64,000 nucleotides of DNA, taken from the IMG/VR virus record IMGVR_UViG_3300048762_000330; one strand, given 5' to 3'. Under the pieces are notes generated by a model. That model ran no database searches. It was not told the origin of the DNA and worked only from the letters and a program-made list of their open reading frames with translations. Position 1 is the stretch's first letter. Each line of letters begins with the position of its first letter. Source of the DNA: a virus. A program made the translations under genes and the position numbers. Of the stretch, positions 13,576 to 60,952 are shown in pieces.

Positions 13576-14259
13576 CTACGGTGTTACAGAGAACGATAAT
13601 CGATAATTTTGGTTCCTTTGCCGCCCATTCCGTTGCAAGTGTGGCATATGATCGTATTCCATGACATAAAGTCGTCCTGTCTGTGGATTTATAGGAAATT
13701 CTGACTCATGCTTTTTGCAACAAAGACATTTGTTGCCATATTTTTCTTTTAAGTCAATTCGTTCTTGTGCTGTGTTGAACCCTTCAGCTTGCGCTCGGTG
13801 GGCACGAATTTTGATTTGCCCAGTTCGCCGGATCTCTCGCCACTTTTCTGGATTGGCTATTGCCCATTTTCGACTTTGATTACGTTTCTTTTCTGCATTG
13901 GCAAGATAATATTTTCGACTGTATTCAAGTTTCTTTTCTATATTGGCTTGATAATATTTTCGAGCATTTTCATAGTATTTTTCTGGATTGGCTTGCCGCC
14001 ACTTTCTAGTTTGTTCACAAACTTTTTCTGGATTTGCTTGATATCGGTTTCGTCCCTGTTCACAAACCCTTTCTCGATTCGCTTGATACCATTTTCGAAG
14101 ATACTCGCATTTCTTTTTGGAATTTTTTTGTGTCCATTTTTGATTTTGTTTGCGATCACAAGCAATACACTTTTTACTGCTTGTATACCTTTTTGGTGAC
14201 CCGCACTTCCGACATGGTTTTCCTTCAAAAAATTTTGGTGATAAATTGTCTTCAGACAT
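13576..14259 (-). pseudogene. repeat-HNH element copy 1, HNH core deleted and frameshifted
   Basis: Zn finger + 7 repeats; after EYDH the VVPLSKGGTNWISNIQPL segment seen in paralogs is missing, and GGKGTKIIDYR lies in another frame. Confidence 0.8.
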
Positions 14260-14330
14260 GACGGTACGCTCCGTTGTGTTTAGGCTGTATTGTGAAGCTC
14301 ATTACTTCACATACAGCCGTTTGTATTTAG
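14260..14330 (-). promoter_or_regulatory. HNH element leader (late promoter + hairpin + RBS hairpin)
   Basis: CTAAATA-CAAAC-GGCTGTATGTGAAG..CTTCACAATACAGCC-TAAACACAACGGAG..CCGTC-ATG. Confidence 0.85.
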
Positions 14331-14358
14331 CATCTATATAAAACCAGGAGTGTGTTAT

Positions 14359-14964
14359 ATGTCGAAATTTTCTGAAGCGATTCCATTCATTTTAAAACAT
14401 GAGGGTGGGTTAGCCGGGCCAACCCCGGCTGGTGAGTACGTGAACATGGGCATCAATACCGATACCCTAATTGCACTCGGTTATAAAGGTACAAAGGATG
14501 AACTGGAAGAAATTATAAAAAATCTCACAATAGAGCAGGCAGTAGATATTTACCAAAAATATTACTGGACTTTTAAAGCACCAAGTATTCCCAATGCTTT
14601 AGATTTGATCCAATCTCAACCTGTAGGCGGAAAGATCCTAGACATGACCGTTCTAAGCGGTCAGCGCACTGCTATAAAGTTGGTACAGCGTGCTGCTAAT
14701 CTCCCGGAGAACGGATACTTCGATCAGGGCACCTTGGATACAGTGAACGGGCTAGGAGACGGCTTTGTGCAGGCATTGATCGCCACCTGGACGGCTTCGC
14801 TGTCATCCATTGCAGATCAAAAAATTGCAGCAGCACAAGCACAGAAAGTTGCAGCCGAAGCCAATAATGACGAAGCTGCTGTAAAGGAAGCCACTACATT
14901 AATAGTCTATTGGACTCGTGTGAAATTGGGCTGGCTTAATCGGGCTGCTTGGACAGGAGTATAA
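14359..14964 (+). CDS. glycoside hydrolase family 108-like lysozyme (endolysin candidate)
   Basis: FSEAIPFILKHEGG...NMGI...LT.EQA..IY..YYW, then AIKLVQRA peptidoglycan-binding-like segment. Confidence 0.7.
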   Translation: MSKFSEAIPFILKHEGGLAGPTPAGEYVNMGINTDTLIALGYKGTKDELEEIIKNLTIEQAVDIYQKYYWTFKAPSIPNALDLIQSQPVGGKILDMTVLSGQRTAIKLVQRAANLPENGYFDQGTLDTVNGLGDGFVQALIATWTASLSSIADQKIAAAQAQKVAAEANNDEAAVKEATTLIVYWTRVKLGWLNRAAWTGV

Positions 14965-14971
14965 TTACATT

Positions 14972-15634
14972 TTAGGTTCTATAATCAATAATTTTAGTTC
15001 CTTTGCCGCCCATTCCATTGCAGATATGGCATAAAGGTTGAATATTTGAAATCCAATTAGTTCCAAGTTTTTGATTTGGACAACAGCAGACTTTATAATT
15101 TTTACTACACCACTGACAAACTGAAAGTGGAACTATGTGATCTCGTTCCATTACATAACATCGTCCTGTTATTGGATTTATAGGAAATTCTGATTCGTGT
15201 TTTTTACAACGAAGACAATGATGCCCATAACATTCGTTAAGATCAATCCATTGTTTTGTTGAGTGATATCCTTCGGCGTTTTTTCGTCTGGCACGATTTT
15301 TTATTCCTGATGTTCGTGTACTTTCACGATACTTCTTTGTATAAGATTGAATCATCTCAGAATTTGATTGTCGCCATTTTCGATGAATTTCATAACACTT
15401 TTCTGGATTTTCTTGTTGCCATTTTCGACTTTTTTCACAAACCTTTTTAAAATTTGATTGATACCATTTTTGACTACGTTCATGACACTTTTCTAGATTT
15501 TTTGTACTCCATTTTCGAATGCGCTCACGACTACAATTAACACATTTTTTGTTGTTAATATACCTCATCAATCCATTACACTTCTTGCATGGTTTTCCTT
15601 CAAAATATTTGGATGATAAATTATTGTTAGACAT
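14972..15634 (-). CDS. repeat-HNH element copy 2 (intact)
   Basis: EGKPCKKC...CVNC; 15-aa repeats; ERDHIVPLS...GTNWISNIQPLCHIC; ends IIDYRT. Confidence 0.85.
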   Translation of the reverse strand: MSNNNLSSKYFEGKPCKKCNGLMRYINNKKCVNCSRERIRKWSTKNLEKCHERSQKWYQSNFKKVCEKSRKWQQENPEKCYEIHRKWRQSNSEMIQSYTKKYRESTRTSGIKNRARRKNAEGYHSTKQWIDLNECYGHHCLRCKKHESEFPINPITGRCYVMERDHIVPLSVCQWCSKNYKVCCCPNQKLGTNWISNIQPLCHICNGMGGKGTKIIDYRT

Positions 15635-15706
15635 TGCGCTCCAAAGGCAGTGCTTTGTTTAGGCTGTATGCGAACTAGAACTTCACATGCAGCCGTTTCT
15701 ATTTAG
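15635..15706 (-). promoter_or_regulatory. HNH element leader
   Basis: CTAAATA-GAAAC-GGCTGCATGTGAAG..TTCGCATACAGCC-TAAACAAAG. Confidence 0.85.
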
Positions 15707-15731
15707 CATCTATATATGTTATAATCATATT

Positions 15732-16582: not shown

Positions 16583-16592
16583 ATTATTAGAC

Positions 16593-17108
16593 ATGAAGAA
16601 ACTCATTTTTATCTTGCTATTTATTTTCTGGGCTGCTTTCGCACAAAATCAAACTCCATCATATGACAAGTATAGCGTGGGCGTCAGCGTGGGATCTACA
16701 TTACTAAGAGAGCCGTTTTCTCCACGACTTTACACTAGTGCAACATTCGGCTACAAGTTCGCAGCAAATTACGATAAGTTTTTTGACAAGGCATACTTCA
16801 CATTCTCGCATTGTGGCGTTGATAAAGGTTCAACCGGCTATGTGATGGGATTGCAGCGCACAATGATAAATGAAAGAGACCGTATGGGACTCATTGGCGT
16901 TGTAGAAGCCGGTACGACTCGAAGCAGTGTGGGTGTATTTCGACCTGAGTTTGCTGTTGGTTTGGGTGTGGGATTCGATTTTAACGGAAACCCATATCCA
17001 AAATTTTTGAACAAGACTACGCTTTCTCTTGTGCCGAAACTCGTTGAAGTCCCTGGAAGACCGGTTTCATTCATACTTCCGATTGGCTTGACAAAGACGT
17101 TCAAGTAG
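16593..17108 (+). CDS. exported, beta-strand-rich protein
   Basis: signal peptide MKKLIFILLFIFWAAFA; alternating hydrophobic strands; terminal F. Confidence 0.5.
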   Translation: MKKLIFILLFIFWAAFAQNQTPSYDKYSVGVSVGSTLLREPFSPRLYTSATFGYKFAANYDKFFDKAYFTFSHCGVDKGSTGYVMGLQRTMINERDRMGLIGVVEAGTTRSSVGVFRPEFAVGLGVGFDFNGNPYPKFLNKTTLSLVPKLVEVPGRPVSFILPIGLTKTFK

Positions 17109-17116
17109 GGTATACT
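17088..17116 (+). promoter_or_regulatory. sigma70-type promoter of ncRNA cluster 2
   Basis: TTGACA-17nt-TATACT. Confidence 0.75.
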
Positions 17117-17128
17117 GAAATTTGTGGC

Positions 17129-17345
17129 GTGTGGCCGCAAGGCGAAGCCGGAATAAGCGCTGTTCGGGTGTGAAAGCATATATATTGGGGCGACAAAGGG
17201 CAGAATGGTTACCAAACGTCTGCTGCTGAACGAACGATGGTTCCAAGGGAGCCGGGAGAGAAGTCTCCAATCGTCATCGTTTACTAAGACAAATCGCCCA
17301 CCTTTGGTAGAGGGACCCGAATCCAATGAGGTTCGGCACTCACAC
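17129..17345 (+). ncRNA. structured RNA, 6S-like architecture (tentative)
   Basis: GTGTG/CACAC, GCCGGA/TTCGGC and TTCGGGT/ACCCGAA stems; AT-rich bubble; GGGCGA/TCGCCC stem; branched tip. Confidence 0.45.
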
Positions 17346-19855: not shown

Positions 19856-20080
19856 ATGCCACAACACATTTTCAAACATATCGACAGCGGCGATCATGTA
19901 TGCTCTATCTGTAAACAATCCGCTGAAGATTGCATTGACATAAAGAAGAACAGCTATACAGAATGCCTTGGTCGCAATGTAGCGCAAGGTGACGCTTTCG
20001 ACCGCACTCTTGATGAAATACTTATGCGTCAAGATATTCAAGAAATGCTTGAAGTAGATCGACTGGAATTTGAAGAATAA
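19856..20080 (+). CDS. hypothetical protein
   Basis: stop overlaps the integrase start. Confidence 0.5.
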   Translation: MPQHIFKHIDSGDHVCSICKQSAEDCIDIKKNSYTECLGRNVAQGDAFDRTLDEILMRQDIQEMLEVDRLEFEE

Positions 20081-21279
20081 TGGCACTCACCTTATACCGC
20101 CGCCATACGGCAAGTTGCATAAAGGGCTATCTACAGAATTTTCGGGTTCATTTTCCAACCACCAAACGAGAGCGTAATAAAGACTGTCAATGCCCGATTA
20201 ATTGCGAAGGCAAGCTCTCTAGCGAATTGCGGGTGTCAAACCGGTCCTTGCATACCTCCGACTGGCTTCAAGCCCAGGAAACGGCTCTAAAGTGGCAAGA
20301 ATGGCGTGCTGTGGCAGAACCGCTACCCAAAGATCCTACGGTTCAATATGCTGTAGATTCGTTTCTTACTTCGCAAGGTTCACAAGGCCGAAATGTGGAG
20401 AAAAACACCTTTCACGGTTTCGATGTTTTATTGCACCAACGGCTGCTTCCGTTTGCCAAGTCGTTTGCCAGCATTCGAGTATTTGATGATCTGGATGTAG
20501 TAAGCAAATTTGTGGAATCTTGGACGAATCTTCAAGCCGGGGGACCGCTGGCTGATTCAACAAAAAAAACGGAAATCGAGCGGCTTCGTTTCTTTTTCAA
20601 CTATTGCAAAGATCGTGAATGGCTGAAAAACAACTATGCCAAAAAAATCAAAATAAGTTTCACTACACAGAAGAAATTTGGGCTTTCACCAAAAGAAGAG
20701 CAGCGTTTGTTTGATGCCATCGACTCTGAAGAACTCAAAGTATTTTGCTTGGTAATGAGACACAGCGGTCTTCGCATTTCCGATGCAACAATGCTCAATG
20801 CATCACAGTTGGTTACTCGTGTTACCAACGGTGAAGGTTTCGCATTGAAGCTCTTCCAGAAAAAAACAAAGGAATTAGTTTATATCCCAATCCCGATGTT
20901 GCTTGCTGATGCGCTTCATGCGCTTCCATACAAAAGTGGTGAATATTGGTTCTGGACCGGTAAAGGAACTCCAGACACCGCCATTGATAATATGTACAAT
21001 CGTTTTAAGGTAGTTGTGAACAAATTGAAATTTGACCGCTCTGTAAGTCCTCACGTGTTAAGACATACATTCAGTATAAACCATTTAAACGCTGGAACGC
21101 CGGTGAAATTTGTTAGTAGATGGTTAGGTCATCACAGCACGACAATTACAGAAAAATCATATTCTCATGCTGTACAAGAAACTTTACTTGCATCAGATGA
21201 AGCATATGATAAATCTATGTTGCGGCAACAAGAGCAACAGTTGAAGTGGAGTCATGCTTCTGGAGCCGTTTCTATTTAG
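20080..21279 (+). CDS. tyrosine recombinase / integrase
   Basis: RHSGLRISDA (R), K, HVLRHTF (HxxR), LGH, Y; SAM-like core-binding domain. Confidence 0.9.
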   Translation: MALTLYRRHTASCIKGYLQNFRVHFPTTKRERNKDCQCPINCEGKLSSELRVSNRSLHTSDWLQAQETALKWQEWRAVAEPLPKDPTVQYAVDSFLTSQGSQGRNVEKNTFHGFDVLLHQRLLPFAKSFASIRVFDDLDVVSKFVESWTNLQAGGPLADSTKKTEIERLRFFFNYCKDREWLKNNYAKKIKISFTTQKKFGLSPKEEQRLFDAIDSEELKVFCLVMRHSGLRISDATMLNASQLVTRVTNGEGFALKLFQKKTKELVYIPIPMLLADALHALPYKSGEYWFWTGKGTPDTAIDNMYNRFKVVVNKLKFDRSVSPHVLRHTFSINHLNAGTPVKFVSRWLGHHSTTITEKSYSHAVQETLLASDEAYDKSMLRQQEQQLKWSHASGAVSI

Positions 21280-22414: not shown

Positions 22415-22503
22415 GGCGCATTAGACCGCTAAGGAGACGGCACCCGCTGTAACCGGGTTGTCCTTTATGGACCCGAGAGGTTCGATACCTTTATGCGCCA
22501 CCA
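22415..22503 (+). tRNA. tRNA-Tyr(GUA) 2
   Basis: GGCGCAT/ATGCGCC + ACCA; ACCCG-CTGTAAC-CGGGT; long variable arm; TTCGATA. Confidence 0.92.
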
Positions 22504-23600: not shown

Positions 23601-24347
23601 ATGTTAAGCTTTTCTCAATTTCTCATGCTTCAATCCAAATTCGCTGGTGGTCCATCTGGCGCACGCCCATTCGACAACATTCCAATGGGCGACCGGGGCG
23701 GCAATCCGCAGACGGTTTTTCAGAACGCCACGAAAGGACAATTCGGGAATCTAGAGCGAATGAAGTTTGCTTATGAAGACGTGAAAGAGTGGGATATGCA
23801 ATGGTGCTTCGCAGCGCCGTATAAACCATCGTTAGGTGAGTCTGAAAAAAAGAAAGATCAGTATGCTTACATCGATCATCCAGACAAAGGAATACTTTTG
23901 CGTAAGGTGGGAAGCAATCCAAATGAACACGCACATGAATTAATGACAAAGGAACATGGTTTAGATTGGACTAAAACCTATCCACATGGTCATATTTTCA
24001 TTAACCACACAAAGAAAAGAACATCCATGGTTCATTATCCATTAACGGGAAAACAACGAAGAGATTTACACTCTGATCTTCGTACCAAGTTACAAGTTCC
24101 AAAGTCTTATTTACAAGAGTCCGAAGAACCGCATTTGATTGGTAGGATTCAAGATCATCTGAAAGATCCTAACAATGCAATTGTTGTTCGAACAGCGACA
24201 AAAAATTTTGGACCATACAAAAGCAAACACGCCGGAATGTTTAGCAATCCAAGTCGTAAAGAACCAGGAGTATGGATTCAACACGGCAAGGGAAAAATGT
24301 ACGCTGACCCTTCTCAAGTTAAGTTTGGGCACTACAAGACTTCTTAG
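23601..24347 (+). CDS. late protein with capsid-targeting-like N-terminus
   Basis: MLSFSQFLMLQ; tandem with the previous gene. Confidence 0.6.
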   Translation: MLSFSQFLMLQSKFAGGPSGARPFDNIPMGDRGGNPQTVFQNATKGQFGNLERMKFAYEDVKEWDMQWCFAAPYKPSLGESEKKKDQYAYIDHPDKGILLRKVGSNPNEHAHELMTKEHGLDWTKTYPHGHIFINHTKKRTSMVHYPLTGKQRRDLHSDLRTKLQVPKSYLQESEEPHLIGRIQDHLKDPNNAIVVRTATKNFGPYKSKHAGMFSNPSRKEPGVWIQHGKGKMYADPSQVKFGHYKTS

Positions 24348-25141
24348 ATACAAAGCGGATGCGGGTTTTTACGAAAATCTTTTTGTGCTCCGGTTTTTTG
24401 ATAACGGTGCCAATTTTTTCGATTACATGAAAAACACAAAGGTTGAATGTTCCAAATCCAGTTAGTGCCGCCTTTTGAAAGCGGAATGATATGGTCTGGT
24501 GTCAAGTATCTTTCCGCTACCCGGCGATGAGATAATTCTGATTCATGAATACCGCAGTCAAGACAACGAATTTTATATTGCTCTTTTAAATCAATCCATG
24601 CTTGTGGCGGATATGAACCTTCGGCTCCTGCTCGTTTGGCATTAGATTTTCTGTGCGATGCTCGTTGACTTTCATAAAATTTTTCTGGATTTTCTTGACG
24701 CCATTTTCGGCATTGTTCCTGACACTTTTCTGGATTGGCTTGTGACCATTTTCGACTTGCTTCACGACGCTTTTCTGGATTTTCTTGCACCCATTTTTGT
24801 TTTATTTCATTGCTTCTTCCTGGATTTTCTTGTACCCATTTTTGATATCTCTCACGAACCTTTTCTGGATGAGTTTGTGCCCACATTCGTCTGCTTGCAT
24901 GTGCTTTCTCTAAATTTGCCCAATACCATTTTTGAGACTTCTCACAACACTTTTCAGAATTGTCTTGATACCATTCTTTTTTCTTCTTATGAACTTTTTC
25001 TAAATTTTCTTGTTGATATTTTCGATCTGATTTGTGTTTGCAATTAACACAAGCTTTGCTGCTAATAAGTCTTATCAGTGACCCACATGTTACGCACGGC
25101 TTTCCTTCAAAATATTTCGATGATAAATTCTCGGTAGACAT
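24344..25141 (-). CDS. repeat-HNH element copy 3 (intact, 8 repeats)
   Basis: MSTENLSSKYFEGKPC; TPDHIIPLSKGGTNWIWNIQPLCFSCN; ends QKDFR + borrowed tail. Confidence 0.85.
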   Translation of the reverse strand: MSTENLSSKYFEGKPCVTCGSLIRLISSKACVNCKHKSDRKYQQENLEKVHKKKKEWYQDNSEKCCEKSQKWYWANLEKAHASRRMWAQTHPEKVRERYQKWVQENPGRSNEIKQKWVQENPEKRREASRKWSQANPEKCQEQCRKWRQENPEKFYESQRASHRKSNAKRAGAEGSYPPQAWIDLKEQYKIRCLDCGIHESELSHRRVAERYLTPDHIIPLSKGGTNWIWNIQPLCFSCNRKNWHRYQKTGAQKDFRKNPHPLCI

Positions 25142-25213
25142 GATGGCTAACTCCATTGTGTTTAGGCTGCATTGCGAAGGTAAGAACTTCACATGCAGCC
25201 GTTTCTATTTATA
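25142..25213 (-). promoter_or_regulatory. HNH element leader
   Basis: TATAAATA-GAAAC-GGCTGCATGTGAAG..CTTCGCAATGCAGCC-TAAACACAATGGAG. Confidence 0.85.
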
Positions 25214-25216
25214 CTC

Positions 25217-26977
25217 TTACTTCAATCCGCCGATTTGAACCAAATTTGGTTTTGGTTTTGCATTCAAGTGAACAATCCCATTCTGATCCACGGTATTTGC
25301 AAAGTGGCCTGCTGTTTCGTTACCTATTCCTTTTAAAGCAAGTCCTGAAATTACACCTTGAGTTCTTGGCACACCAATCTGTTCATGTCTTTGAAAAATA
25401 TTATCGTCGGCATCGCCCGCAGCAACCGGGTACATTTTTCCGGTGGCATCATCTTGGTAAAATTTTGCTTGGGGTTCATGCTTGCCCCTGCGGTACACAG
25501 ATGCAACTACACCGCCATTCTCCAAGTGTTTGACAACTTCTTTATCATTACTTTCATCGTGACCCGAGCCGGTATGAGACAAAGCTAAATGGTAATTCTG
25601 AGGCTGATCTTTGTGGCCTAAGCGCCCGTGCATCTTTGTGTAGTCGTAAAAAGTTGTATTTGGATTCTCAGGATCATTTCCCAAATGCGAGTGAAAAAAT
25701 TCTTTCGGCATCAAATGTTCATACGGTAAGTCGGATGTAACATTCATACGAATACCAGATTTATAGTGAACAGGTTGGCCTGCTTTGTCAAAGACAGGTT
25801 CCGTTTTTGGAGCCATTATAGGTTTGCCAGACTTCCGATCAACTTTTCCGGTGGGTTGCATTGCTGGCTTGCCATCTGGACCCATCATCGGTCTTTGGAC
25901 TTGCGCTTCCGAAGCTCCCTTTTCATTGTCCAGAATTTCTTGATGCATAATTCGAGCAGCTTCTTCCGGGTGTTCGTGCATAAAGTGTGTACGCAGTAAT
26001 TTGGCTCTTGTTGTTGAAAATGGAAAATTGACATTGCCGCCAGCAGTGAGACCTAAACAACCTTTTCTGCATTCAGAAGAAGCATTTGGACACATGTCAT
26101 ATTCTTTTCCGGTTGTTGGGTGCTGATATCCAGAATGCAAACCAGGACTCAAAGAAAGACCAATAGTTTTGTAACCTACACCAGCACTTGAAAGTGTTTT
26201 GTGGTTTACACCAAACATATTAGATCCTTTGGCTGTAGCTGGACTCAACTTACCATGTTGCACAAGATGATTCACAAACATCTTTCTTGCATCTTGATAT
26301 TTCTTTTGCCGAGTAGGTTCATCTTCCTGTGCAACTTTTTGACCTGTTTTTGGATCAACACCAAATGCAGCATGGAAACCTCTTCGCATATACTCAAACG
26401 GGTTTGACATGGCTTGAGCTTCGTAATGCTTGCCTTGGGCATGTAGAATTCCTGCTTGTTGCCCTCTAGCATTCATTCTTGCTCTAGCTTCATTTTTTAT
26501 ACGTTCTATTTCTTGAACACCATGTTGTTTTTTTGGATCGACGGCTCCACTTTTCCGTTGTTGAAGCCATGCAGCCCGTCTTTCTTTGGCTCTGGCTGCG
26601 GGATCGGCTGATACAGGTTGTTTAAGTGCAACCTTTTTTGGCTTCATTGCCGGTTTTGCAACAGCAGCAGGTTCTTCAGTAAGATCAAAGAATCCTTTAT
26701 ATGGTTCTAGTTCTTCATTCACACTTGCTTCGCCATATATTTTATGGGATTGACCGGGCATGTAAGAAGGGTGAATCATCGGAGAAGAAAGATGGTGAAG
26801 GAACCGACCGACTGTGCTGTCCATCGGATCATCTTCTTCTGATTCTTCAGGCTCTTCCGGTTCTTCGTCTTTTTGAACTGGATTGACAGCTTCGATAAGC
26901 TCTGGTTCAAGTTCAAGAATAGCGTCTAGAAAAGTCGTGCCGAAGAATTTTTTATAATCTTCTGTTGTTAAAGCCAT
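25217..26977 (-). CDS. GP88-like protein with long acidic/basic N-terminal extension
   Basis: C-terminal LSLSPG..CPNAS..CRKGCL..AG..RAK...IRMNVTSD..FYDYTK..NYHL..S; ATAAATA-N5-ATG. Confidence 0.55.
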   Translation of the reverse strand: MALTTEDYKKFFGTTFLDAILELEPELIEAVNPVQKDEEPEEPEESEEDDPMDSTVGRFLHHLSSPMIHPSYMPGQSHKIYGEASVNEELEPYKGFFDLTEEPAAVAKPAMKPKKVALKQPVSADPAARAKERRAAWLQQRKSGAVDPKKQHGVQEIERIKNEARARMNARGQQAGILHAQGKHYEAQAMSNPFEYMRRGFHAAFGVDPKTGQKVAQEDEPTRQKKYQDARKMFVNHLVQHGKLSPATAKGSNMFGVNHKTLSSAGVGYKTIGLSLSPGLHSGYQHPTTGKEYDMCPNASSECRKGCLGLTAGGNVNFPFSTTRAKLLRTHFMHEHPEEAARIMHQEILDNEKGASEAQVQRPMMGPDGKPAMQPTGKVDRKSGKPIMAPKTEPVFDKAGQPVHYKSGIRMNVTSDLPYEHLMPKEFFHSHLGNDPENPNTTFYDYTKMHGRLGHKDQPQNYHLALSHTGSGHDESNDKEVVKHLENGGVVASVYRRGKHEPQAKFYQDDATGKMYPVAAGDADDNIFQRHEQIGVPRTQGVISGLALKGIGNETAGHFANTVDQNGIVHLNAKPKPNLVQIGGLK

Positions 26978-27776: not shown

Positions 27777-28571
27777 CTACCTTTGTTTATTTATGTCTCT
27801 TCGGTAATCAATAATTTTGGTTCCTTTGCCGCCCATTCCATTACAATCGTGGCAAAGCGGTTGGATGTTCGAAATCCAATTTGTTCCAAGTTTTTGATTT
27901 GGACAACGGCAGACTTTATAATTTTTACTACACCACTGACAAACTGAAAGTGGGATTATATGATCTTGTTCCATTGCATAAGGTCGCCCTGTCCTTGGAT
28001 TTATAGAAAATTCTGATTTGTGTTTTTTACAGCAAAGACAATGGTTGTCATATTGTTCTTTTAGATCAATCCAGTCTTGTGTGGTGTAATAACCTTCGGC
28101 TTGATTTCGTTTTGCACGAGATTTTTCCAATGCAACTCGGTGGATTTCACGATATCGTTCACAATTGTTTTCTCGCCGCTTTAGATCCCTTTTATGATTT
28201 TGCTCACGGACTTTTTCTGGATTCGCTTTCAGCCACTTTAGATGATTCTCACGATTCTTTTCTGGATTTGCTTGTTGCCATTTTCGAGATTGCTTATTAG
28301 CTTTTTCTGAATTTTGTTGATACCACCGTTGAACCTTCTCTGGATTTGCTTGTTGCCATTTTCGAACAATCTCACGAGCCTTTTCTAGATTAGCTCGACG
28401 CCATTTTCGATTTGCTTTAAGAACTTTTTCTGAATTTTCTTGTTGCCATTTTCGAGCCTGATTAAATGCACAATCAACACAGTGTTTATTGCTTGCATAC
28501 CTTTTCGTTGACCCACACTTCTTGCATGGTTTTCCTTCAAAATATTTGGGTGATAAATTATCTTCAGACAT
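27777..28571 (-). CDS. repeat-HNH element copy 4 (intact)
   Basis: MSEDNLSPKYFEGKPCKKC; EQDHIIPLS..GTNWISNIQPLCHDC; IIDYR + tail. Confidence 0.85.
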   Translation of the reverse strand: MSEDNLSPKYFEGKPCKKCGSTKRYASNKHCVDCAFNQARKWQQENSEKVLKANRKWRRANLEKAREIVRKWQQANPEKVQRWYQQNSEKANKQSRKWQQANPEKNRENHLKWLKANPEKVREQNHKRDLKRRENNCERYREIHRVALEKSRAKRNQAEGYYTTQDWIDLKEQYDNHCLCCKKHKSEFSINPRTGRPYAMEQDHIIPLSVCQWCSKNYKVCRCPNQKLGTNWISNIQPLCHDCNGMGGKGTKIIDYRRDINKQR

Positions 28572-28639
28572 GACGGGCACTCCGTTGTGTTTAGGCTGCT
28601 TGAGAAGGTCACACTTCCCATGCAGCCGTTACTATTTAG
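28572..28639 (-). promoter_or_regulatory. HNH element leader
   Basis: CTAAATA-GTAAC-GGCTGCATGGGAAG..CTTCTCAAGCAGCC-TAAACACAACGGAG. Confidence 0.85.
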
Positions 28640-28692
28640 CATTGCAAAAACTATTGACATCTTTCAGCGTTTGTGATATGCTGAAATCTGCT

Positions 28693-31967: not shown

Positions 31968-32762
31968 ATGTTTGACAAAATCTATAAGTTTAGCAAATTA
32001 GCAGCAGTGCTTTGTGTGATTCCAATCACATTTTATCTTTGTGTTTTTCTCCATTCTCTGACTGCTACTACGAACCAACTTGCTATAACGGCAAAAGTAT
32101 TACCCACACAAGTAGATGGTCGTATCGGAAAATTGCAGAAAGATGTATTAGACAAAATCGACACTGTTCAAGGGAGCTTGAACACAGAGGTCAACACATT
32201 GGCGCATCTTATTGATACTCGAATGGACAAGTTCACAACGACAACTGATAACCGGCTTGGCGCACTCGAAACGGATACATTCAAAGCTGTTGGTGACATT
32301 CGAGAAACTGCCAATACACAGTTGACTACAGCGAACAATTCTGTAACCACATTGGTTACTGCTTATGCTGAAATTCCAAAGGTTGTTGGCGCAAGATATG
32401 AAAGAGATTTTAATTCATATTTTGATTGTAAAATCAATAAATTATGTTTAACAGGGCAGGCAAGTGATATGTTATTTGCAATGCGGCAAACAAGCCGACA
32501 AATTGAGAAAGCTTCAGATGACTTTGATGCCGCATTACCAATAATTTTAACCAATGTAAAATTAATTACAACTAAGTTTCAAGACACGGAAGATCAATCT
32601 CAATCACTCATGCGTGAAAGTGCCGGGATGATGGCTAATATGCGGAAGGCCACAACGCCGCTTCCAACTTGGTTAAGAATTGTACTTGGTGTAGGACCGC
32701 CAGTTGCTCAAGGCGGTGCAGCAGTGGTAGCTGCCGGGTCGGTGTTAGGATGGTTTAAGTGA
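31968..32762 (+). CDS. membrane-anchored coiled-coil protein
   Basis: N- and C-terminal hydrophobic segments flanking long heptad helices. Confidence 0.55.
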   Translation: MFDKIYKFSKLAAVLCVIPITFYLCVFLHSLTATTNQLAITAKVLPTQVDGRIGKLQKDVLDKIDTVQGSLNTEVNTLAHLIDTRMDKFTTTTDNRLGALETDTFKAVGDIRETANTQLTTANNSVTTLVTAYAEIPKVVGARYERDFNSYFDCKINKLCLTGQASDMLFAMRQTSRQIEKASDDFDAALPIILTNVKLITTKFQDTEDQSQSLMRESAGMMANMRKATTPLPTWLRIVLGVGPPVAQGGAAVVAAGSVLGWFK

Positions 32763-33721
32763 TTTGTTATTTCCTGGCAAATTTGAATGAAATAATTTTG
32801 CGAATAATTATATTTCATAAGTTGAATATCTTTATGCACCCATTGAATATTTCCAGGTATGTAGCCCTTTGTTGAGTCAATACGGTCTAATGACGCCGTT
32901 CCCCAAGATCTACCTCCATGTGTTGATTGTCTTTGCTGTATAGAAAGTCCAGTTAAAGCGCAACATTCATTTTGTTTTTCAAATAATTCCCACCCTTCTT
33001 TGATAGTTACTTCAAATTTCAATTCTCGTTTTTTTGCACCATTTTTTAAACTACTCCAGTAGCGTCTGCTTAAATTTTTATAACCACGCCAAGAATGAGA
33101 TCGATTCTTAAAAGTAGTGGTTTCAACATTTTGATGTATCAATGCTTTATATGATGAAACTTTTTCGCATAACGCAAAAAACTTTTCTTCTGATAACGCC
33201 CATTTCATTCTTTGAATATCTTTATGTATCCATTGAATATTTCCTTTTGTATACCCTTGTGAAGAATCTATCCGATCAAGAGAAGCATTTCCACATCTTT
33301 TTTTATGTATTGTAAAAGGAAGTGTTAATTCTCTTCCAGTCAATGCACATTGTTTATTTTGTTGGGTAAAAATATTCCAGGCATCTTGAATCGTAATTAA
33401 AAATGAAAATTTTCGAAGTTGTGCTTTGCGTCGAACCCCATACCAATATGCTCCTGATAAATCCATATATCCTTTCCACCCATTATTATTTTTCCCGCAA
33501 ACGCTGTGGCGATAACACTGCGGACATCCAGATTTCAATCTGCTATAAATTTTAGCTTTCCATTCGTGTTTACAAATTGAACAAGACCACCAAACAATTT
33601 TATTACTTTGTGTTGTGAATTGATTTGGTGTGTTTGGTGTATTTCGTGAAGGATGCCATTCTTCTGCAATTTTTGGAAAGGCAATATTTAAAAATTGGTG
33701 TTTGTAAATAGAAACAGACAT
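32708..33721 (-). CDS. putative homing endonuclease (zinc ribbon + two tandem His-Me-like domains)
   Basis: EEWHPSRN...VWWSCSICKHEW...CPQC, then 2x CALTG...ASLDRIDS..GY..GNIQW.HKD. Confidence 0.7.
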   Translation of the reverse strand: MSVSIYKHQFLNIAFPKIAEEWHPSRNTPNTPNQFTTQSNKIVWWSCSICKHEWKAKIYSRLKSGCPQCYRHSVCGKNNNGWKGYMDLSGAYWYGVRRKAQLRKFSFLITIQDAWNIFTQQNKQCALTGRELTLPFTIHKKRCGNASLDRIDSSQGYTKGNIQWIHKDIQRMKWALSEEKFFALCEKVSSYKALIHQNVETTTFKNRSHSWRGYKNLSRRYWSSLKNGAKKRELKFEVTIKEGWELFEKQNECCALTGLSIQQRQSTHGGRSWGTASLDRIDSTKGYIPGNIQWVHKDIQLMKYNYSQNYFIQICQEITNHLNHPNTDPAATTAAPP

Positions 33722-33799
33722 TGGGCGCTACCTCCTAAGTAGCGACATGTTCAGGGCAGATGTGATGCTAAAACATTACTTCTGCCCGATTCTATTTAT
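33722..33799 (-). promoter_or_regulatory. late promoter + 5' hairpin + RBS-sequestering hairpin
   Basis: ATAAATA-GAATC-GGGCAGA...TCTGCCC-TGAACAT-GTCGCTAC TTAGGAG GTAGCG..ATG. Confidence 0.7.
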
Positions 33800-33827
33800 A
33801 CTTGACAAATGTAATTTATATGCTCTA

Positions 33828-46211: not shown

Positions 46212-46285
46212 ATACAGAGAGGTTGACATATTTAAAAAGTGCGGTATTCTAGTAATGGTCATTGTATCAAAGGTCAATAACATTC

Positions 46286-47535: not shown

Positions 47536-47860
47536 TATGTTCGATCAAAACGAACCCGATATTTTTGGAGATGCGGAACGGCTTCATGAAAGTGAACCCT
47601 TTCAAGAAGTACAAAACGATTTTTCTAAAATTTCGGAAGAAGAATTTTTATATCGCTACAAAGCTACTAAGTTGCAATACCAAATTATCTTCACTGCTAT
47701 CCAAGAACTTCATAAAGTTAATGAAGTTCTCTCTGAAATGGGAGCACTCTCCATTGATCCTGAAATCGTAGAAAACACAACTTTACTAATTGAAGATTAT
47801 GCTCAGTTACTTGAACAAATGAATTCATCAAACTACTGGTATAATGAAGAAAATCGATAA
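47528..47860 (+). CDS. hypothetical acidic protein
   Basis: its stop lies inside the end of the convergent HNH element. Confidence 0.55.
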   Translation: MTNMFDQNEPDIFGDAERLHESEPFQEVQNDFSKISEEEFLYRYKATKLQYQIIFTAIQELHKVNEVLSEMGALSIDPEIVENTTLLIEDYAQLLEQMNSSNYWYNEENR

Positions 47861-48525
47861 TCTATCTGCGATCCGGTTTTTAAATAATGATGCCAATTTT
47901 TTCTGTTGCATGGAAAACACAAAGGTTGAATATTAGTAATGTAATCTGTGCCGCCTCTTGAAAGTGGAATGATATGATCTGGTGTTAAATGTCTTTCCGC
48001 TATATTAAGACGAGTTGCTAATTCTGATTCATGGACACCGCAATCCAAACATCGATTGTTATACTGTTCTTTTAGGTCGATCCAAGCTTGTGAAAGATAT
48101 GAACCTTCGGCTCCTGCTCGTTTGACCCGTTGACGATGCCCATATTCAAGACATTTTCCTGGATTATTTCGTTTCCACTTTCGGTGATTTTCAATATTCT
48201 TTTTTGAATTTATCTGTTGCCATAAAAGAGTCTGCTCGCATTTTTTTCTAGAATTTTTCTGATACCAGTTTTGATTTATGTTGCGTCTCTTTTCAGAGTT
48301 TTCTTTTGCCCATTTTTGTTTTTGTTTACTATGTTTTTCTTGATTAACTTTTGCCCACTTTCGTTTTGCTCCACAACTCTTTTCTGGATTATCTCGTGCC
48401 CATTCTTGACTCTGTTTGCGTGTGCAATTAACGCAATTTTTGCCGTTGACATATCTTTCTATTGATCCACACTTTACACAAGGTTTTCCTTCGTAATATT
48501 TTGGTGATAAATTATTTTCAGACAT
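47833..48525 (-). CDS. repeat-HNH element copy 5 (intact)
   Basis: MSENNLSPKYYEGKPC; TPDHIIPLSRGGTDYITNIQPLCFPCN; QIDYR + tail. Confidence 0.85.
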   Translation of the reverse strand: MSENNLSPKYYEGKPCVKCGSIERYVNGKNCVNCTRKQSQEWARDNPEKSCGAKRKWAKVNQEKHSKQKQKWAKENSEKRRNINQNWYQKNSRKKCEQTLLWQQINSKKNIENHRKWKRNNPGKCLEYGHRQRVKRAGAEGSYLSQAWIDLKEQYNNRCLDCGVHESELATRLNIAERHLTPDHIIPLSRGGTDYITNIQPLCFPCNRKNWHHYLKTGSQIDYRFSSLYQ

Positions 48526-48595
48526 GACGGGTCACTCCGTTGTGTTTAGGCTGCTTGCGAAGGTCAATACTTCACATGCAGCCGTTTGTATTTAG
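48526..48595 (-). promoter_or_regulatory. HNH element leader
   Basis: CTAAATA-CAAAC-GGCTGCATGTGAAG..CTTCGCAAGCAGCC-TAAACACAACGGAG. Confidence 0.85.
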
Positions 48596-48632
48596 CGCTT
48601 GACAAATCTTAATTCTATGGTTTAATAAAATT

Positions 48633-48944
48633 ATGACAAACACAAAACGACATCAATCAGAACTTGATAGAGTACAAACAAAGTACCACGAAGAAGATAG
48701 AGACCCTTGCACCACGGAAAAGGCAGAAGAAACCATAAGCATGACTCTAGATCGACTATTGGGAGAGTTAAGTGCCACTGCTCTTATGGTAGACGATCTT
48801 CGTGGCAAATCTTTTTCTGAAGGCGAAGCTAAAGCGGAAGCAAAGGATATTGAAAGCAACTGTCTTCAATCCCAGGCATGTCGTGCGGCAGCTAAAGCTA
48901 CAGAGATCAATCGCAGATTAAAATCAATTTTAGCTCGTCTGTAA
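48633..48944 (+). CDS. hypothetical coiled-coil protein
   Basis: sigma70 promoter TTGACA upstream; sits between two HNH elements. Confidence 0.55.
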   Translation: MTNTKRHQSELDRVQTKYHEEDRDPCTTEKAEETISMTLDRLLGELSATALMVDDLRGKSFSEGEAKAEAKDIESNCLQSQACRAAAKATEINRRLKSILARL

Positions 48945-49535
48945 ATGGTTACGAAAATTTATCTGTGCTCCAGTTTTCAAGTAGTGGTGCCAATTTTTTC
49001 TATTACAATCATGACATAACGGCTGTATGTTCCAAATCCAATTTGTACCTCCTCTTGAAAGCGGAACGATGTGATCTGGTTCCACTGGGCGCTGTCGTCC
49101 TGTTCTTGGATTTATAGGAAATTCTGATTTGTGTTTTTTGCAGTCAAGACAATGGTGCCCATATTGTTCGTTTAGGTCAACCCATTGCTTTGTGGAGTGA
49201 AAGCCTTCGGCTTGACGACGATTTGCTCGCTGTTTTGTTCTGGATATTCGCATACTTTCTCGATATTTTTCTGGATTGTTTTGTCTCCATTTTCTACTAC
49301 TTTCTTGATCTTTTTCTGAATTTTCTTGTTGCCAACTTTTAACTTTTTCTGGATTTTCTTTACGCCATTCATGAACTCTTTTACGAACTCTTTCTGGATT
49401 CACTTGATATGCTTGGTTAACATATTTGTGGGCACAATCAACACAACATTTACTTTTAACATACCTTTTTGTTGATCCACACTTCCGGCAAGGCTTCCCT
49501 TCATAAAATTTCGATGCTAAATTATCGTCAGACAT
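48930..49535 (-). CDS. repeat-HNH element copy 6 (intact, 4 repeats)
   Basis: MSDDNLASKFYEGKPC; EPDHIVPLSRGGTNWIWNIQPLCHDCN; QINFR + tail. Confidence 0.85.
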   Translation of the reverse strand: MSDDNLASKFYEGKPCRKCGSTKRYVKSKCCVDCAHKYVNQAYQVNPERVRKRVHEWRKENPEKVKSWQQENSEKDQESSRKWRQNNPEKYRESMRISRTKQRANRRQAEGFHSTKQWVDLNEQYGHHCLDCKKHKSEFPINPRTGRQRPVEPDHIVPLSRGGTNWIWNIQPLCHDCNRKNWHHYLKTGAQINFRNHLQTS

Positions 49536-49607
49536 TGCGCTCTCCAAAGTGCTTTGTTCAGGCTGTGTGCGAAGGTCAATACTTCACTCACAGCCGTCTC
49601 TATTTAG
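49536..49607 (-). promoter_or_regulatory. HNH element leader
   Basis: CTAAATA-GAGAC-GGCTGTGAGTGAAG..CTTCGCACACAGCC-TGAACAAAG. Confidence 0.85.
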
Positions 49608-49651
49608 CACTAACCAAACACTCAAACAAACGACCTTGAAGATATAAATAA

Positions 49652-50119
49652 ATGCAGGAAGATAAACTTATGTTGTCAAATTCGTATTACGCCAAATTTT
49701 TTGGGGATGCCCTTTTGAAAGAAATATTTCATCTAGACGAAGAGCTAACACAGGCAATTGCCACCAAACAAGACCCGGTAGTTGAAGATGAATTAGAACA
49801 CTCTTTGGATGTTGCTTTATCCGAAGCTGATGTTGAAGGCACTAAACTTTTGAGCGAAGCCAAGAAGCCTAAATACCACGTCTATTCGGCATATGGTGGA
49901 ACTCGGTTATCCTCACATCACTCTTTAGCAGCCGCCCACAAAGCTGCCGTTAAGCACAGCGATAAACAGCCAGTACATGTTTGGACCGCAACAGGCGGTG
50001 AATTAGGGATGGGTAAGCCGGTGGCTCATTATAGTAATGGGAAGAAAACTGTCTTTGAAGATGTGAAGTTTGAAAAAGATCTTGATTCTATGATGAAATT
50101 GATAATCGGTAATCAATAA
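49652..50119 (+). CDS. late acidic protein, possibly virion-internal
   Basis: TATAAATA upstream; LSEA motifs; last codons (IGNQ*) derive from the antisense HNH end. Confidence 0.55.
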   Translation: MQEDKLMLSNSYYAKFFGDALLKEIFHLDEELTQAIATKQDPVVEDELEHSLDVALSEADVEGTKLLSEAKKPKYHVYSAYGGTRLSSHHSLAAAHKAAVKHSDKQPVHVWTATGGELGMGKPVAHYSNGKKTVFEDVKFEKDLDSMMKLIIGNQ

Positions 50120-50670
50120 TTTTTGTTCCTTTATGTGCCATATCATTGCAAGTGTGGCACAACGGTTGTATGTTTGAAATCCAATTTGTTCCACCTTTTG
50201 AAAGTGGAACAACATGATCGTATTCCATTGAATGCGGTCGTCCTGTTCTTGGGTTTACGGGAAATTCTGACTCATGAATTTTACAACAAAGACATTTATT
50301 GCCGTACTTTTCTTTTAGGTCAATTCGTTCCTGTGCCGTGTTAAATCCTTCTGCTCCTGCTCGTCTTGCACGAGCTTTTATATTCCCATTTCGATGTAGT
50401 TCTCGATAGCGTTCAGGATTATTTTTCTTCCACTTTTGTTGTTTCTCAAATACTTTGTCCGGGTTGGCTTGATCCCACTTCCGATTATTCTTACGAACCT
50501 TTTCTGGATTTTCTTGTTGCCATTTTTTAACACTCTTATAATGTTTTTCTAAATTTGCTTGGACCCATTTTCGCTTCTGTTCACGATTCTTTTCTGGATT
50601 TGCTTGCACCCATTTCTGTTGTGATTCATGTTTCTTTTCTGGATTTTCTTGCGCCCATTTTTGAGCATTT
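50088..50670 (-). pseudogene. repeat-HNH element copy 7, 5'-truncated
   Basis: repeats + EYDHVVPLSKGGTNWISNIQPLCHTC + KGTKIIDYR; no Zn finger or leader. Confidence 0.75.
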
Positions 50671-51223
50671 CTATCATGGCTTAGAGCACATCAAAGAGTG
50701 CTTTGCCGAATTATACAAACTCATCGATGCTGGTCTAATTGAAAACGAAGAAAGTATGCGAATCGCTTTGTGGTACCATGATTACTTTCAAAACCACACA
50801 GCCGACGATGAAGAACGGTCTGCTTTAAAAGCCTACGATGCTGCCATTTCGTTGGGCTACGATGAAGCATTTGCAAAAATCGTGCGGCGGCTAGTCCTGG
50901 TGACGAAGCATGGTATGTATTTTCCAGAAACGAATGATGAACAATTTATGTGCGACATTGATCTGACCGGGTTCGCCGCCGAAGATTTCCAAGCCCGAAC
51001 TGATCGAGTCCGCATGGAGTACCCAGATGTGCCATTAGAAGCCTTCATAGTGGCACGCAGAGGCATTCTGAGAGGCTTTATGGACCGTCCGCATATCTAC
51101 TACACCCCTTACTATCAAAAGCGCTGTGAGGCTAAAGCACGCCAAAACTTGAATGATGCAATTGATGGCTGTAGGCACGGTGTTTCTTACGAGCATCGTT
51201 GCTTTGAATGCAAAGTAGAATAA
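50665..51223 (+). pseudogene. HD-domain phosphohydrolase, N-terminus lost
   Basis: YHGLEHI...ALWYHD...EERSA...TKH...DIDL; upstream in-frame sequence is antisense HNH repeats. Confidence 0.7.
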
Positions 51224-53911: not shown

Positions 53912-54211
53912 ATGAGAACGAGAACGGTTAAATTATCAGAAATCGCTGCATCGCCGGAATTACGATTCGACGCTGAGTATTGGTTAGCACATAAGACGCC
54001 GGAACAACCGAAACAAGAACAGACGCCGGATGAAGCGATTGATTTGCTCCGCTCACTGGTATTCGAGTATGAGCGCAAATTAACCGAACAGGTGAGCCAA
54101 GATACCGCTGAAAATATCACCGAAGACTACCACGCTGCTTTGGTTATGCTTCAGCGCTTTGTGGATGACCAAATACTCGAAGGCGGCAGCGACGAAGAAA
54201 CATTACCGTAA
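53912..54211 (+). CDS. hypothetical protein
   Basis: RFDAEYW motif; clean ORF. Confidence 0.5.
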   Translation: MRTRTVKLSEIAASPELRFDAEYWLAHKTPEQPKQEQTPDEAIDLLRSLVFEYERKLTEQVSQDTAENITEDYHAALVMLQRFVDDQILEGGSDEETLP

Positions 54212-54212: not shown

Positions 54213-54233
54213 TGCAGCCGTTTCTATATTTAG
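54213..54233 (-). mobile_element. scar of the HNH element 5' end
   Basis: minus strand CTAAATA-TAGAAAC-GGCTGCA, then homology stops. Confidence 0.55.
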
Positions 54234-57975: not shown

Positions 57976-58260
57976 TTAAAATCCCAACCAACTATTGATC
58001 TCAGTTTCAGCCTGAAGCGCATTAACAAACAAAATTCCGATACCACCGTTTTTTATCCAATTGGCGATATTTCGATCCATGTCATCAACCAGCATGTTGC
58101 CTGCCGCATGAAGCACTTTATCACGTTTGCGTAAGACGATCAGACGATTCTCTTTCGCAATCCAAGGTGTCTCACGTTCAAGCCATTCGAGCTTTTGTTC
58201 TTTATGATGTACTTTGTCGAATTTTCCATGAAAAAGCTTCATGGTAAAATCGCCGTGCTT
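57976..58260 (-). pseudogene. C-terminal half of a second HAD nucleotidase-like gene
   Basis: QKLEWL...K...A...MLVDD..RNI.NW...GG.GI; N-terminal DxD motif absent. Confidence 0.55.
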
Positions 58261-58444
58261 CCCGGAGATTTTGACATCGAAATAGCACCGTCTAACAAAG
58301 CGCATTCCAAGGAGCAGTAGATGTATGGAGGATCAATATACTGTGTTCCACGTTCTGTGTACGGGTCCTCAAAATGCCGCCTTCTTTTACCACAGTCAGC
58401 GTATTTACAAGGTCTTTTTTCTTCCTTCTTTTCTGCCATATCTT

Positions 58445-58993: not shown

Positions 58994-59008
58994 AGGTATA
59001 TTTAGAGT

Positions 59009-59110
59009 CTAAATACTAACGGCTGCGTGTGAAGTTCTTACCTTCGCAAGCAGCCTAAACACAACGGAGTGCCCGTCATGTCTGAAGACAATTCAATCCA
59101 CATGTCATGA
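59009..59110 (+). mobile_element. solo HNH element leader + first codons only
   Basis: CTAAATA-CTAAC-GGCTGCGTGTGAAG..CTTCGCAAGCAGCC-TAAACACAACGGAG..ATGTCTGAAGACAAT, then unrelated sequence with a stop after 10 codons. Confidence 0.8.
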
Positions 59111-59216
59111 CCACAAGAACATGTGGTGTTGAAGCCACTGTCTTACCAATGACATTATTTCAGGTTCGAGAGTAGAATACCAATCACTCATTTTTTGTGA
59201 ATCAGTTTAATGTTGA

Positions 59217-59507
59217 TTATCGATAACCGCCATTACTGTGCCACCAATCACCAATAACAGAATCGTTGACGCCAATTTTTTCAAGGAACTCTATCATATC
59301 GAAATTATCCATTTCAGTGGAGAAACGAACATTTTCTGAATCTACTTCGATGTTCCAATAATCCGAATCTGCGTAATCAATGCCTAGTTGTGCGCCTATG
59401 GTAGCGTGATTCACGATCTTCTCAAGCTGTTCAGCCGTGATGTCCTTCAATTGGATTACAAAGCTGCTGCTACTTGAATTTGAAACGAAACCGCATCTTA
59501 TCTTCAT
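59217..59507 (-). CDS. FVSNSSSSSF-motif protein (paralog 2)
   Basis: MKIRCGFVSNSSSSSFVI; GAGGA RBS. Confidence 0.75.
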   Translation of the reverse strand: MKIRCGFVSNSSSSSFVIQLKDITAEQLEKIVNHATIGAQLGIDYADSDYWNIEVDSENVRFSTEMDNFDMIEFLEKIGVNDSVIGDWWHSNGGYR

Positions 59508-59742
59508 ATTTCCTCATGCAATATTCAAACCGTTGGCAAAAAATACATTTCTATTATACCAGCGGTTTTAGCTTTGTCAAGTATTTAGGTATACCAACTG
59601 TAAACCTCTTTCAATTCCACCACCGAATACGTTGGCACTTGGCGCAATAACTAGTCGGTCGCAATGGCCACCGACTAGTTGGTTCGTGCGACCAAAAACA
59701 ACACCACGCCTGCCATACTTGCAAAATCCAATTCATTATTAC

Positions 59743-60090
59743 TTAAGTATACCAACTGTCAATACAAGTATTGCATTCCACTTCTTTGCCAAGTGCTTTG
59801 GCAACTTTAGTCGTGGCGTCTGCTTTAAATTGAGCACCGGTTTCGGCATCGCCCAATGTGTTGTAGCTGCGCCCGACTGCAACATTGCATTCCTCGTCAA
59901 TGTAATATTCCAACTTTGTTCCTTCAGTAATCTTGGACAAAGCTTCATAGATACATTCCGGGTCGTCATCATTGATTTCAATATTTTGGGCCTTCATTAA
60001 ACTCTCAAATTCGGTGTAGTCCAGAATTGCGCCAAAGATTGCGAAACTGGAACTTGAGCTATTTGAAACAAATCCATTACGGAACTTCAT
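59743..60090 (-). CDS. FVSNSSSSSF-motif protein (paralog 3)
   Basis: MKFRNGFVSNSSSSSFAI. Confidence 0.75.
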   Translation of the reverse strand: MKFRNGFVSNSSSSSFAIFGAILDYTEFESLMKAQNIEINDDDPECIYEALSKITEGTKLEYYIDEECNVAVGRSYNTLGDAETGAQFKADATTKVAKALGKEVECNTCIDSWYT

Positions 60091-60124
60091 GCTGTTTCTC
60101 CTACACTAACCAGTATATCACATG

Positions 60125-60193
60125 CTAAATAGAAACGGCAGCACGTGAAGTTCTTGGCTTCGCAAGCTGCCTAAACACAACGGAGTGACCGTC
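60125..60193 (+). promoter_or_regulatory. HNH element leader with compensatory stem change
   Basis: CTAAATA-GAAAC-GGCAGC...GCTGCC (versus GGCTGC...GCAGCC). Confidence 0.85.
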
Positions 60194-60952
60194 ATGTCTG
60201 AAGACAATTTAGCATCGAAATTTTACGAAGGAAAGCCGTGCCGAAAATGCGGGTCTACGAGACGATATGTTCGTAAAAAAGCTTGTGTTAATTGCCACCA
60301 CGATCAAGGACGAAAATGGCAACAAGCAAATCCAGAAAAGGTTCGTAAGCAAACTCAAAAGTGGAAACAAACTAATCCAGAAAAATATCGTGAATCAAAA
60401 CAAAAGTGGGAACAAACAAATCGACAAAAATGCCGTGATAAACTTCAAAGATGGCGGAAAGCGAATCTAGAAAAATGTCGTAATTATGATAGGAAACGGT
60501 ATCAAGCTAATCCAGAAAAGTACCGTGAATATGGTTTAAGGTGGAAGAAAAATAATCCAGAGGCATACAGGCAATCAAGTTTAAATGGAAGTATAAAAAA
60601 CCGTGCCAGACGAATGCAAGCTGAAGGTTCAAACACAGCACAAGAACGGATTGATTTAAACGAAGAGTACGGGCATCATTGTCTTCGTTGCAAAAAGCAC
60701 GAGTCAGAATTTCCTATACATCCACGAACAGGACGACCATATTCAATGGAATACGATCATGTCATTCCACTTTCAGTCTGCCAGTGATGTAGCAAAAATT
60801 ATAAAGTATGCCGTTGCCCGAATCAAAAACTTGGAACGAATTGGATTAGCAACATTCAGCCGTTATGTCATGATTGCAATGGAATGGGCGGCAAAGGAAC
60901 CAAAATTATTGACTACAGAATAGATTACTTCACCGCCCACGCACTCAACTAG
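60194..60952 (+). pseudogene. repeat-HNH element copy 8 with a nonsense mutation (TGG>TGA at 60785-60787)
   Basis: paralogs read VCQWCSKNYK; the frame continues in phase to GTNWISNIQPLCHDC...KIIDYR. Confidence 0.8.

Follow-up and report, generated by a model that had tools for sequence, protein, structure and literature searches.

Phage T4 carries 12 free-standing endonuclease genes, among which late promoters coupled with hairpins that mask the ribosome-binding site (RBS) and an antisense member are known; their insertions are transposition-like, and illegitimate repair at microhomology has been described as a route to ectopic sites (PMC2988022). Between 6 and 8 dispersed, decaying free-standing HNH(-AP2) genes are found per genome in the Xanthomonas oryzae phages Xop411, Xp10, and OP1 (PMC2248197), and homing endonuclease gene islands have been reported at boundaries of genetic exchange (Barth, Dunham and Seed 2023, PMC10448857). 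Here, we report eight loci of one HNH endonuclease gene family in a 64,000-nucleotide stretch of the IMG/VR virus record IMGVR_UViG_3300048762_000330 (the window, meaning the whole stretch that was analyzed), from a large, uncultivated phage that has a T4-like baseplate gene and an AAA ATPase gene and whose relatives reach about 405 kb. Each complete copy consists of a promoter-like box, a structured RNA leader, and an open reading frame (ORF). The copies are probably paralogs of a free-standing HNH homing endonuclease gene that have passed through ectopic repair, gene conversion, and decay, and their sharp ends are probably the limits of preservation. A sequence-only reading of the same DNA had instead proposed a self-spreading unit, unlike classical homing, that inserts by a transposition-like or RNA-assisted mechanism using its 5' hairpin.

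The kind of family is already known; the family itself is new. As with the T4 mob (HNH) and seg (GIY-YIG) genes (Edgell, Gibb and Belfort 2010, PMC2988022), multi-copy nuclease genes lie between conserved phage genes, with late-type promoters, RNA hairpins predicted to occlude the RBS, and occasional antisense orientation (segD in T4); transposition-like arrival at new sites, at times with a host gene split or truncated, and pseudogenized members are further likenesses. Unlike in T4 mob and seg, the leader here is sequence-homologous across HNH and GIY-YIG genes, seven of the eight copies converge with the 3' end of a neighbor gene, and the DNA-binding part is made of a Zn finger and helical repeats of 15 amino acids (aa). 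With the X. oryzae phages, the family shares sites that vary between sister phages, a lack of conserved flanks, and a series from intact to degenerate copies; the HNH subfamily and the DNA-binding domain differ, and no shared promoter-leader module is reported there (PMC2248197). That ectopic, transposition-like insertion and multi-copy HNH families had already been described (PMC2988022, PMC2248197) is one of the points that count against the mechanism read from the defined ends. What stood was the picture of a self-spreading selfish nuclease family, with many unrelated sites colonized, presence/absence differences between related phages, and decaying copies.

A tblastn search of the window with two copies as queries recovered precisely the eight loci (13576, 14972, 24344, 27777, 47833, 48930, 50088, and 60194) listed in the sequence-only reading, and its count of five intact and three inactivated copies was borne out by translation and alignment. 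Open ORFs, each behind a leader and all on the minus strand, are present in c2 (14972..15714; ORF 14972-15634), c3 (24344..25221; leader with a TATAAATA box; ORF 24344-25141, 265 aa), c4 (27777..28647; ORF 27777-28571), c5 (47833..48603; ORF 47833-48525), and c6 (48930..49615; ORF 48930-49535). The pseudogene c1 (13576..14338, minus strand; leader 14260-14338, ORF 13576-14259) was inactivated by an out-of-frame deletion that falls past the DH motif and before the second CxxC of the HNH core, and c7 (50088..50690, minus strand) is 5' truncated and without leader, start, and about 36 codons. The remaining copy, c8 (60117..60952, plus strand; leader and ORF 60194-60952), has a nonsense codon (in-frame TAG at 60785-60787, within a 19-aa insert); it was translated through the break with X, and its alignment row is short of one Cys.

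The ORF layout is a Zn finger, then four to eight helical 15-aa repeats, then an HNH domain, which is the sole catalytic domain in the repeated unit (Pfam and PHROGs). Repeat arrays vary between copies in number and sequence, and the catalytic CxxC...DH...N...CxxC motifs align across all open copies. Pfam HNH/HNH_5 matched c3, c5, c6, and c7 above the gathering score, and the PHROG HNH and "endonuclease VII" families matched c4 and c5. The 19-aa Cys-rich insert (CxxC...CxC) lies in the HNH loop of c2, c4, and c8 only and is the reason that the Pfam model misses these three copies. It may represent an additional zinc knuckle that gene conversion has spread, its DNA being almost the same in c2 and c4. 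Synteny with two relatives (G003 and L041) places c5, c6, and c7 as ORFs of their own between orthologous phage genes, not within an intron or intein. As free-standing homing endonuclease genes of the T4 mob/seg type, with presumed homing activity, the copies form a family that is new. An HNH domain behind a structured RNA encoded upstream of the ORF is a likeness to IscB/HEARO (IS200/605-type elements), but a RuvC domain is absent and the leader is about 60 nucleotides (nt) long, versus a guide scaffold of 200 to 300 nt. An IscB-like RNA-guided nuclease was rejected on the score of c5 against NF040563 (21.6 bits versus a cut-off of 175, HNH part only), and no Rfam family matched the leader.

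At the 3' end, pairwise blastn and alignments confirmed the abrupt boundary that had been described: in the window copies, similarity stops directly after the R codon of D/N-Y/F-R. The conserved block stops at 13585 in c1, at 14978 in c2 (14 nt from the end of a convergent GH108 gene), and at 60919 in c8. No stop codon is carried, also as described, and the tails of 1 to 10 codons are mutually unrelated. The boundary R is encoded variously by CGT, CGA, and AGA and is therefore conserved at the protein level. Seven more members, on the viral contigs G001, G002, and G003, end at D(Y/F)R with tails of 0 to 33 codons. Across the 15 members examined, the element-side boundary does not vary. Distant database homologs on unrelated contigs likewise end in (I/V)DYR, followed by an unrelated tail of 8 to 17 aa. 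As far as sequence comparison goes, the DYR boundary is the family-wide last conserved protein motif and is not peculiar to this genome.

The element had also been said to supply the stop codon of two neighbors. Both stops (at 47860 and 50119) fall inside the conserved block, and the last codons of the neighbor at 49652-50119 are supplied by the strand antisense to c7 IIDYR. The case at 47860 is ambiguous: the final codons of c5 overlap the R-stop of the neighbor (47855-47860), but this R-stop ending is conserved in relatives that have no element there, by other codons.

Copies were 66 to 84% identical in nucleotide sequence (16 to 34% diverged), and the proportion of synonymous differences (pS) was 0.5 to 0.65 in most pairs, with the NIQPLC block saturated. 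Patches of low pS were found at the N terminus of c2-c4 (0.18) and of c3-c8 (0.23) and in the middle of c2-c4-c6 (0.31 to 0.34), c2 and c4 showed 1 difference in about 75 nt across the insert region, and leader type, insert, and C-terminal type occurred in all combinations. High divergence together with local low-pS patches means that the family is old and that patches were exchanged by gene conversion. With synonymous sites near saturation, homology survives only where selection or gene conversion maintains it; unconstrained flanks become unalignable and conversion tracts are confined to homology, so edges would be abrupt under any insertion mechanism. The sharp ends thus probably mark the limits of what selection and homology-dependent conversion preserve, with the promoter box on one side and (I/V)DYR on the other. 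Any stop soon after the R would suffice, and the tail would be whatever the local DNA supplies. New sites would be reached by rare ectopic (illegitimate) double-strand-break repair, as proposed for T4-type endonuclease genes, and insertion would be followed by patch exchange through gene conversion and then by decay and deletion.

At the 5' end, homology set in about 72 nt upstream of the ATG, at a late-promoter-like box, (G/T)(C/A)TAAATA (pairwise blastn and alignments), and the repeated unit covers the TAAATA box and 3 to 11 nt upstream of it. The claim that homology starts at the late promoter held for the onset at this box but not for an exact edge: in c1 and c2, the similarity runs 9 bases further upstream, which makes the 5' boundary a little ragged. 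One common fold was present in every leader: hairpin 1, beginning 5 to 6 nt downstream of the TAAATA box, a CUAAACA linker, and hairpin 2, which pairs the GG of the GGAG Shine-Dalgarno (SD) sequence and the UGU of the AUGU start region. The covariation noticed earlier in the leader hairpin was confirmed by compensatory changes in both helices. Among 12 leaders from three phages, 93% of cells were paired and 9 of 19 pairs had changed on both sides, with slid controls at or below 42%; the structure was derived from the same sequences, which somewhat favors it.

A covariance model built from these leaders was run on the window, on the 166-kb contig G001, and on G003. All eight HNH-type leaders of the window were found (one remnant, x3, included). 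G001 gave four matches, three of them HNH leaders, and G003 gave one. The fourth G001 leader, almost identical to the HNH leaders, precedes a GIY-YIG/NUMOD3 gene (L023:10921-11507, which is G001 70921-71507; minus strand; 69 bits). In the window, the model also picked up two leaders that belong to unrelated nuclease genes. One (33716..33808, minus strand) consists of TATAAATA, a hairpin, a CUGAACA linker, an SD hairpin, and AUGUCU and precedes gene 32708-33721, which has a DUF4379 Zn finger and endonuclease PHROG matches and is unrelated to the HNH family; the other (4072..4169, minus strand) has the same architecture and precedes a T5orf172-type nuclease gene (3220-4077). The leader is homologous across HNH and GIY-YIG genes, and two further nuclease families share its architecture. 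Its occurrence on GIY-YIG and other nuclease genes therefore makes it an expression module and not the end of an HNH-specific element; judging from these matches, the module is common to selfish nuclease genes.

A complete copy is a compact cassette of four parts: a late-type promoter box, TAAATA, presumably active late; hairpin 1, expected at the transcript's 5' end or close to it, which may stabilize the transcript; hairpin 2, which may throttle translation by pairing part of the SD sequence and the start codon; and the ORF with its Zn finger, four to eight helical repeats, and HNH domain. In T4 I-TevI, the late promoter is placed so that the inhibitory fold cannot form; here, by contrast, both hairpins are downstream of the late-type box and should be kept in the late transcript.

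Several other observations concern the leader and its box. A simple terminator scan left the leader hairpin unflagged on both strands. On the opposite strand, hairpin 1 is followed, for example at 48543-48603, by a stretch rich in U that is complementary to the late box and spacer and is predicted to be able to end transcription running antisense through the HNH gene. In three cassettes (48595-48633, 4157-4165, and 33801-33808), TTGACA on the opposite strand abuts the TAAATA box, gtcaag sitting immediately upstream of the box, and may serve a divergent neighbor gene as a -35 element. Several genes (e.g., at 9642-9657 and 49643-49654) have a TATAAATA box 0 to 5 nt before the ATG and look leaderless or nearly so.

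Site turnover was followed in two relatives, G003 (31.6 kb; syntenic with window 30.8-58.4 kb) and L041 (syntenic with 45.7-50 kb; one short contig from a metagenome scan, at 86% amino-acid identity). Four sites were comparable, namely, those of c5, c6, c7, and a G003 copy, with c1 to c4 outside. Megablast of 16 kb of the window against known phages gave no match, and protein searches of a phage collection returned distant HNH homologs or weak matches only; for the Gp88-like and GH108 genes, which flank the c1 to c4 sites, viral contigs held relatives of at most 43% identity or none.

At the c5 site, L041 and a jumbo contig (L040) have a 93-aa gene that is absent from the window, where c5 sits, and G003 has the 93-aa gene together with a different HNH gene. 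The latter encodes an endonuclease of 183 aa on the other strand (G3rc 16610-17161; L029/L032), and the c5 intergenic position is a hot spot for unrelated nuclease genes. The c6 site is filled in all three phages, with another subfamily that has a short leader and no hairpin in G003 and L041, the L041 occupant being a pseudogene. At the c7 site of the relatives, the neighbor protein has a Zn-ribbon of about 60 aa at its C terminus, and a 93-aa gene comes next; both the Zn-ribbon and this gene are lost from the window, and the 5' deletion of c7 also took the start (about 20 codons) of gene 50555-51223. The G003 copy (728-1320), flanked by a nucleotidase-like gene on one side and a small ORF on the other, has no window counterpart. 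It was tried as an occupied/empty pair with the window and rejected, as a deletion of about 1.3 kb in the window removed the G003-type HNH copy, a 74-aa ORF, and half of the nucleotidase-like gene. What is left in the window (gene 57976-58305; see also 58198-58238) encodes the last 74 aa of an NT5C/HAD-like nucleotidase, without the catalytic N terminus, the complete 163-aa gene being found in G003 (L029; 728-1870).

The relatives thus show replacement, swapping, and ragged host-side loss, not clean insertion or excision. Of the defined ends that had been claimed, the element-side DYR boundary stayed constant in the 15 members, but the host sides showed replacement and ragged deletions. Nuclease genes that replace one another at the same intergenic positions, as in the c5-c6-c7 cluster, are a likeness to endonuclease gene islands (PMC10448857).

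Besides the eight copies, three extra remnants (scars) were found. Scar x3 (59001..59093, plus strand) comprises the complete leader and 16 nt of coding sequence from the start codon on, with no homology further downstream; a VDYR-stop 135 nt downstream was considered as its 3' remnant and dismissed, as local alignments were not significant versus shuffles. Scar x2 (54214..54230, minus strand) retains the first 17 to 20 nt or so of the leader (15/17 match) and abuts the stop codon of gene 53912-54211, and scar x1 (21262..21278, minus strand; 16/17 match to the leader start) overlaps the final codons and stop of a tyrosine recombinase gene (20080-21279).

The transposition-like or RNA-assisted mechanism acting through the 5' hairpin was not supported, given old mosaic copies, a family-wide DYR, no target-site duplications, and a shared leader. 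Direct and inverted matches between the 30-nt flanks of the copies reached 4 to 7 nt at most, within the random distribution, so neither target-site duplications, which had been suggested as something to look for, nor terminal inverted repeats were found beyond chance. No reverse transcriptase or transposase was found among roughly 30 window ORFs scanned, a scan short of all ORFs. A copy made from RNA would be without the promoter, and the presence of the promoter within the repeat therefore speaks against such a copy. A DNA transposon or insertion sequence was rejected, the copies having no terminal inverted repeats or target-site duplications, only an HNH catalytic domain, and just 66 to 84% identity; a retro-copied element was rejected because the unit includes its own promoter and because no reverse transcriptase was among the ORFs scanned.

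Several points weigh against the reading of the ends as limits of preservation. All eight window tails are at most 10 codons long, versus a median of 16 at random positions; something keeps them short, and this suggests selection for an early stop, for no particular stop. In c5 and c7, the element meets host sequence right at the DYR codons or within them. Within c3/c5 and within c2/c4/c8, copies are about 80% identical up to the R codon and have nothing in common beyond it, an abruptness that gene conversion explains and that a mechanistically fixed 3' end would explain too. The AlphaFold model of c5 has confident repeat helices and a poor HNH core, too weak to place DYR within the predicted fold, and so carries no information on that motif. 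The relatives, moreover, are too distant for nucleotide-level empty-site alleles (L041, as above).

These points lend themselves to a reading in which the stretch between promoter and R codon moves as a discrete cassette with a mechanistically fixed 3' end, for example because the HNH enzyme nicks its own gene at the DYR codons and so makes a donor end, or through transposition-like or RNA-templated copying via the leader hairpin. The constant element-side boundary in all 15 members fits it, as do the junctions at or within DYR at c5 and c7, and the roughly 30 nt just before the end are identical, synonymous sites included, in c1, c2, c4, and c8; some homing endonucleases may, in addition, cut their own sequence for a donor end (PMC10448857). 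The type-2 C termini (c3, c5, and c6) have no such synonymous-site conservation, however, and DYR with a variable tail recurs in distant homologs on unrelated contigs. The age and mosaicism of the copies, the ragged host-side junctions, the leader common to GIY-YIG and other nuclease genes, and the flank, promoter, and ORF-scan results given above also speak against a discrete cassette, which we regard as quite unlikely. That the unit from TAAATA box to R codon is the true unit of ectopic movement, with a donor end made at its own coding 3' end, we hold to be very unlikely. If it were so, each insertion would arrive stop-less and borrow a stop from the target, and the family would be a self-delimiting homing endonuclease cassette, between homing and transposition; a mechanistically fixed 3' end would then be a new route of homing endonuclease genes to ectopic sites.

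Domestication offers another account of the copy number, as duplication under selection: the phage itself would benefit from keeping several nucleases that differ in their repeat arrays, for instance to break down the DNA of its host or of competitors late in infection. Five open copies with conserved regulation and repeat arrays that differ in number and sequence, as if diversified, agree with this, and homing endonucleases that act in interference competition are reported (bioRxiv 10.1101/2023.09.30.560319). Yet three of the eight copies are broken and three scars are present, sites are gained, lost, and swapped between related phages, and insertions truncate neighbor genes; decay and turnover of this sort are what a selfish endonuclease gene ordinarily goes through (PMC2248197), and domestication seems unlikely. 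An integron-like system, in which the tyrosine recombinase (20080-21279) moves hairpin-bearing cassettes, could draw on the presence of that gene, on the leader fragment overlapping its stop codon, and on the imperfect hairpin of the cassettes. The recombinase, however, is generic, far below curated integron integrase/Xer cut-offs (34 bits versus 265), the cassettes are dispersed and form no array, the hairpin-flanking bases are direct and not inverted, with no attC-like R''/R' pair, and the copies are 16 to 34% diverged; an integron gene cassette was rejected on recombinase score, non-inverted hairpin flanks, and dispersed copies, and such a system is extremely improbable here.

Three side observations concern other genes. 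In the viral contigs L036 to L039, the ortholog of the AAA ATPase gene (46262-47254) is split by about 1.06 kb between residues 133 and 134 (e.g., L036 8651-10552), probably by an intron, intein, or endonuclease insertion. An Rfam tRNA at 9475-9547 is missing from the ARAGORN list, and a second ARAGORN tRNA-Tyr at 22415-22503 is missing from the Rfam table.

Read as paralogs of a free-standing homing endonuclease gene, the eight copies put a full life cycle on view, from invasion through hot-spot replacement and patchwise conversion to decay and deletion with collateral damage to host genes, in an example from a lineage of large phages about which little is known. Of more use is a by-product, the promoter with its two-hairpin leader, which its sharing among nuclease genes makes a portable expression module for toxic selfish genes.

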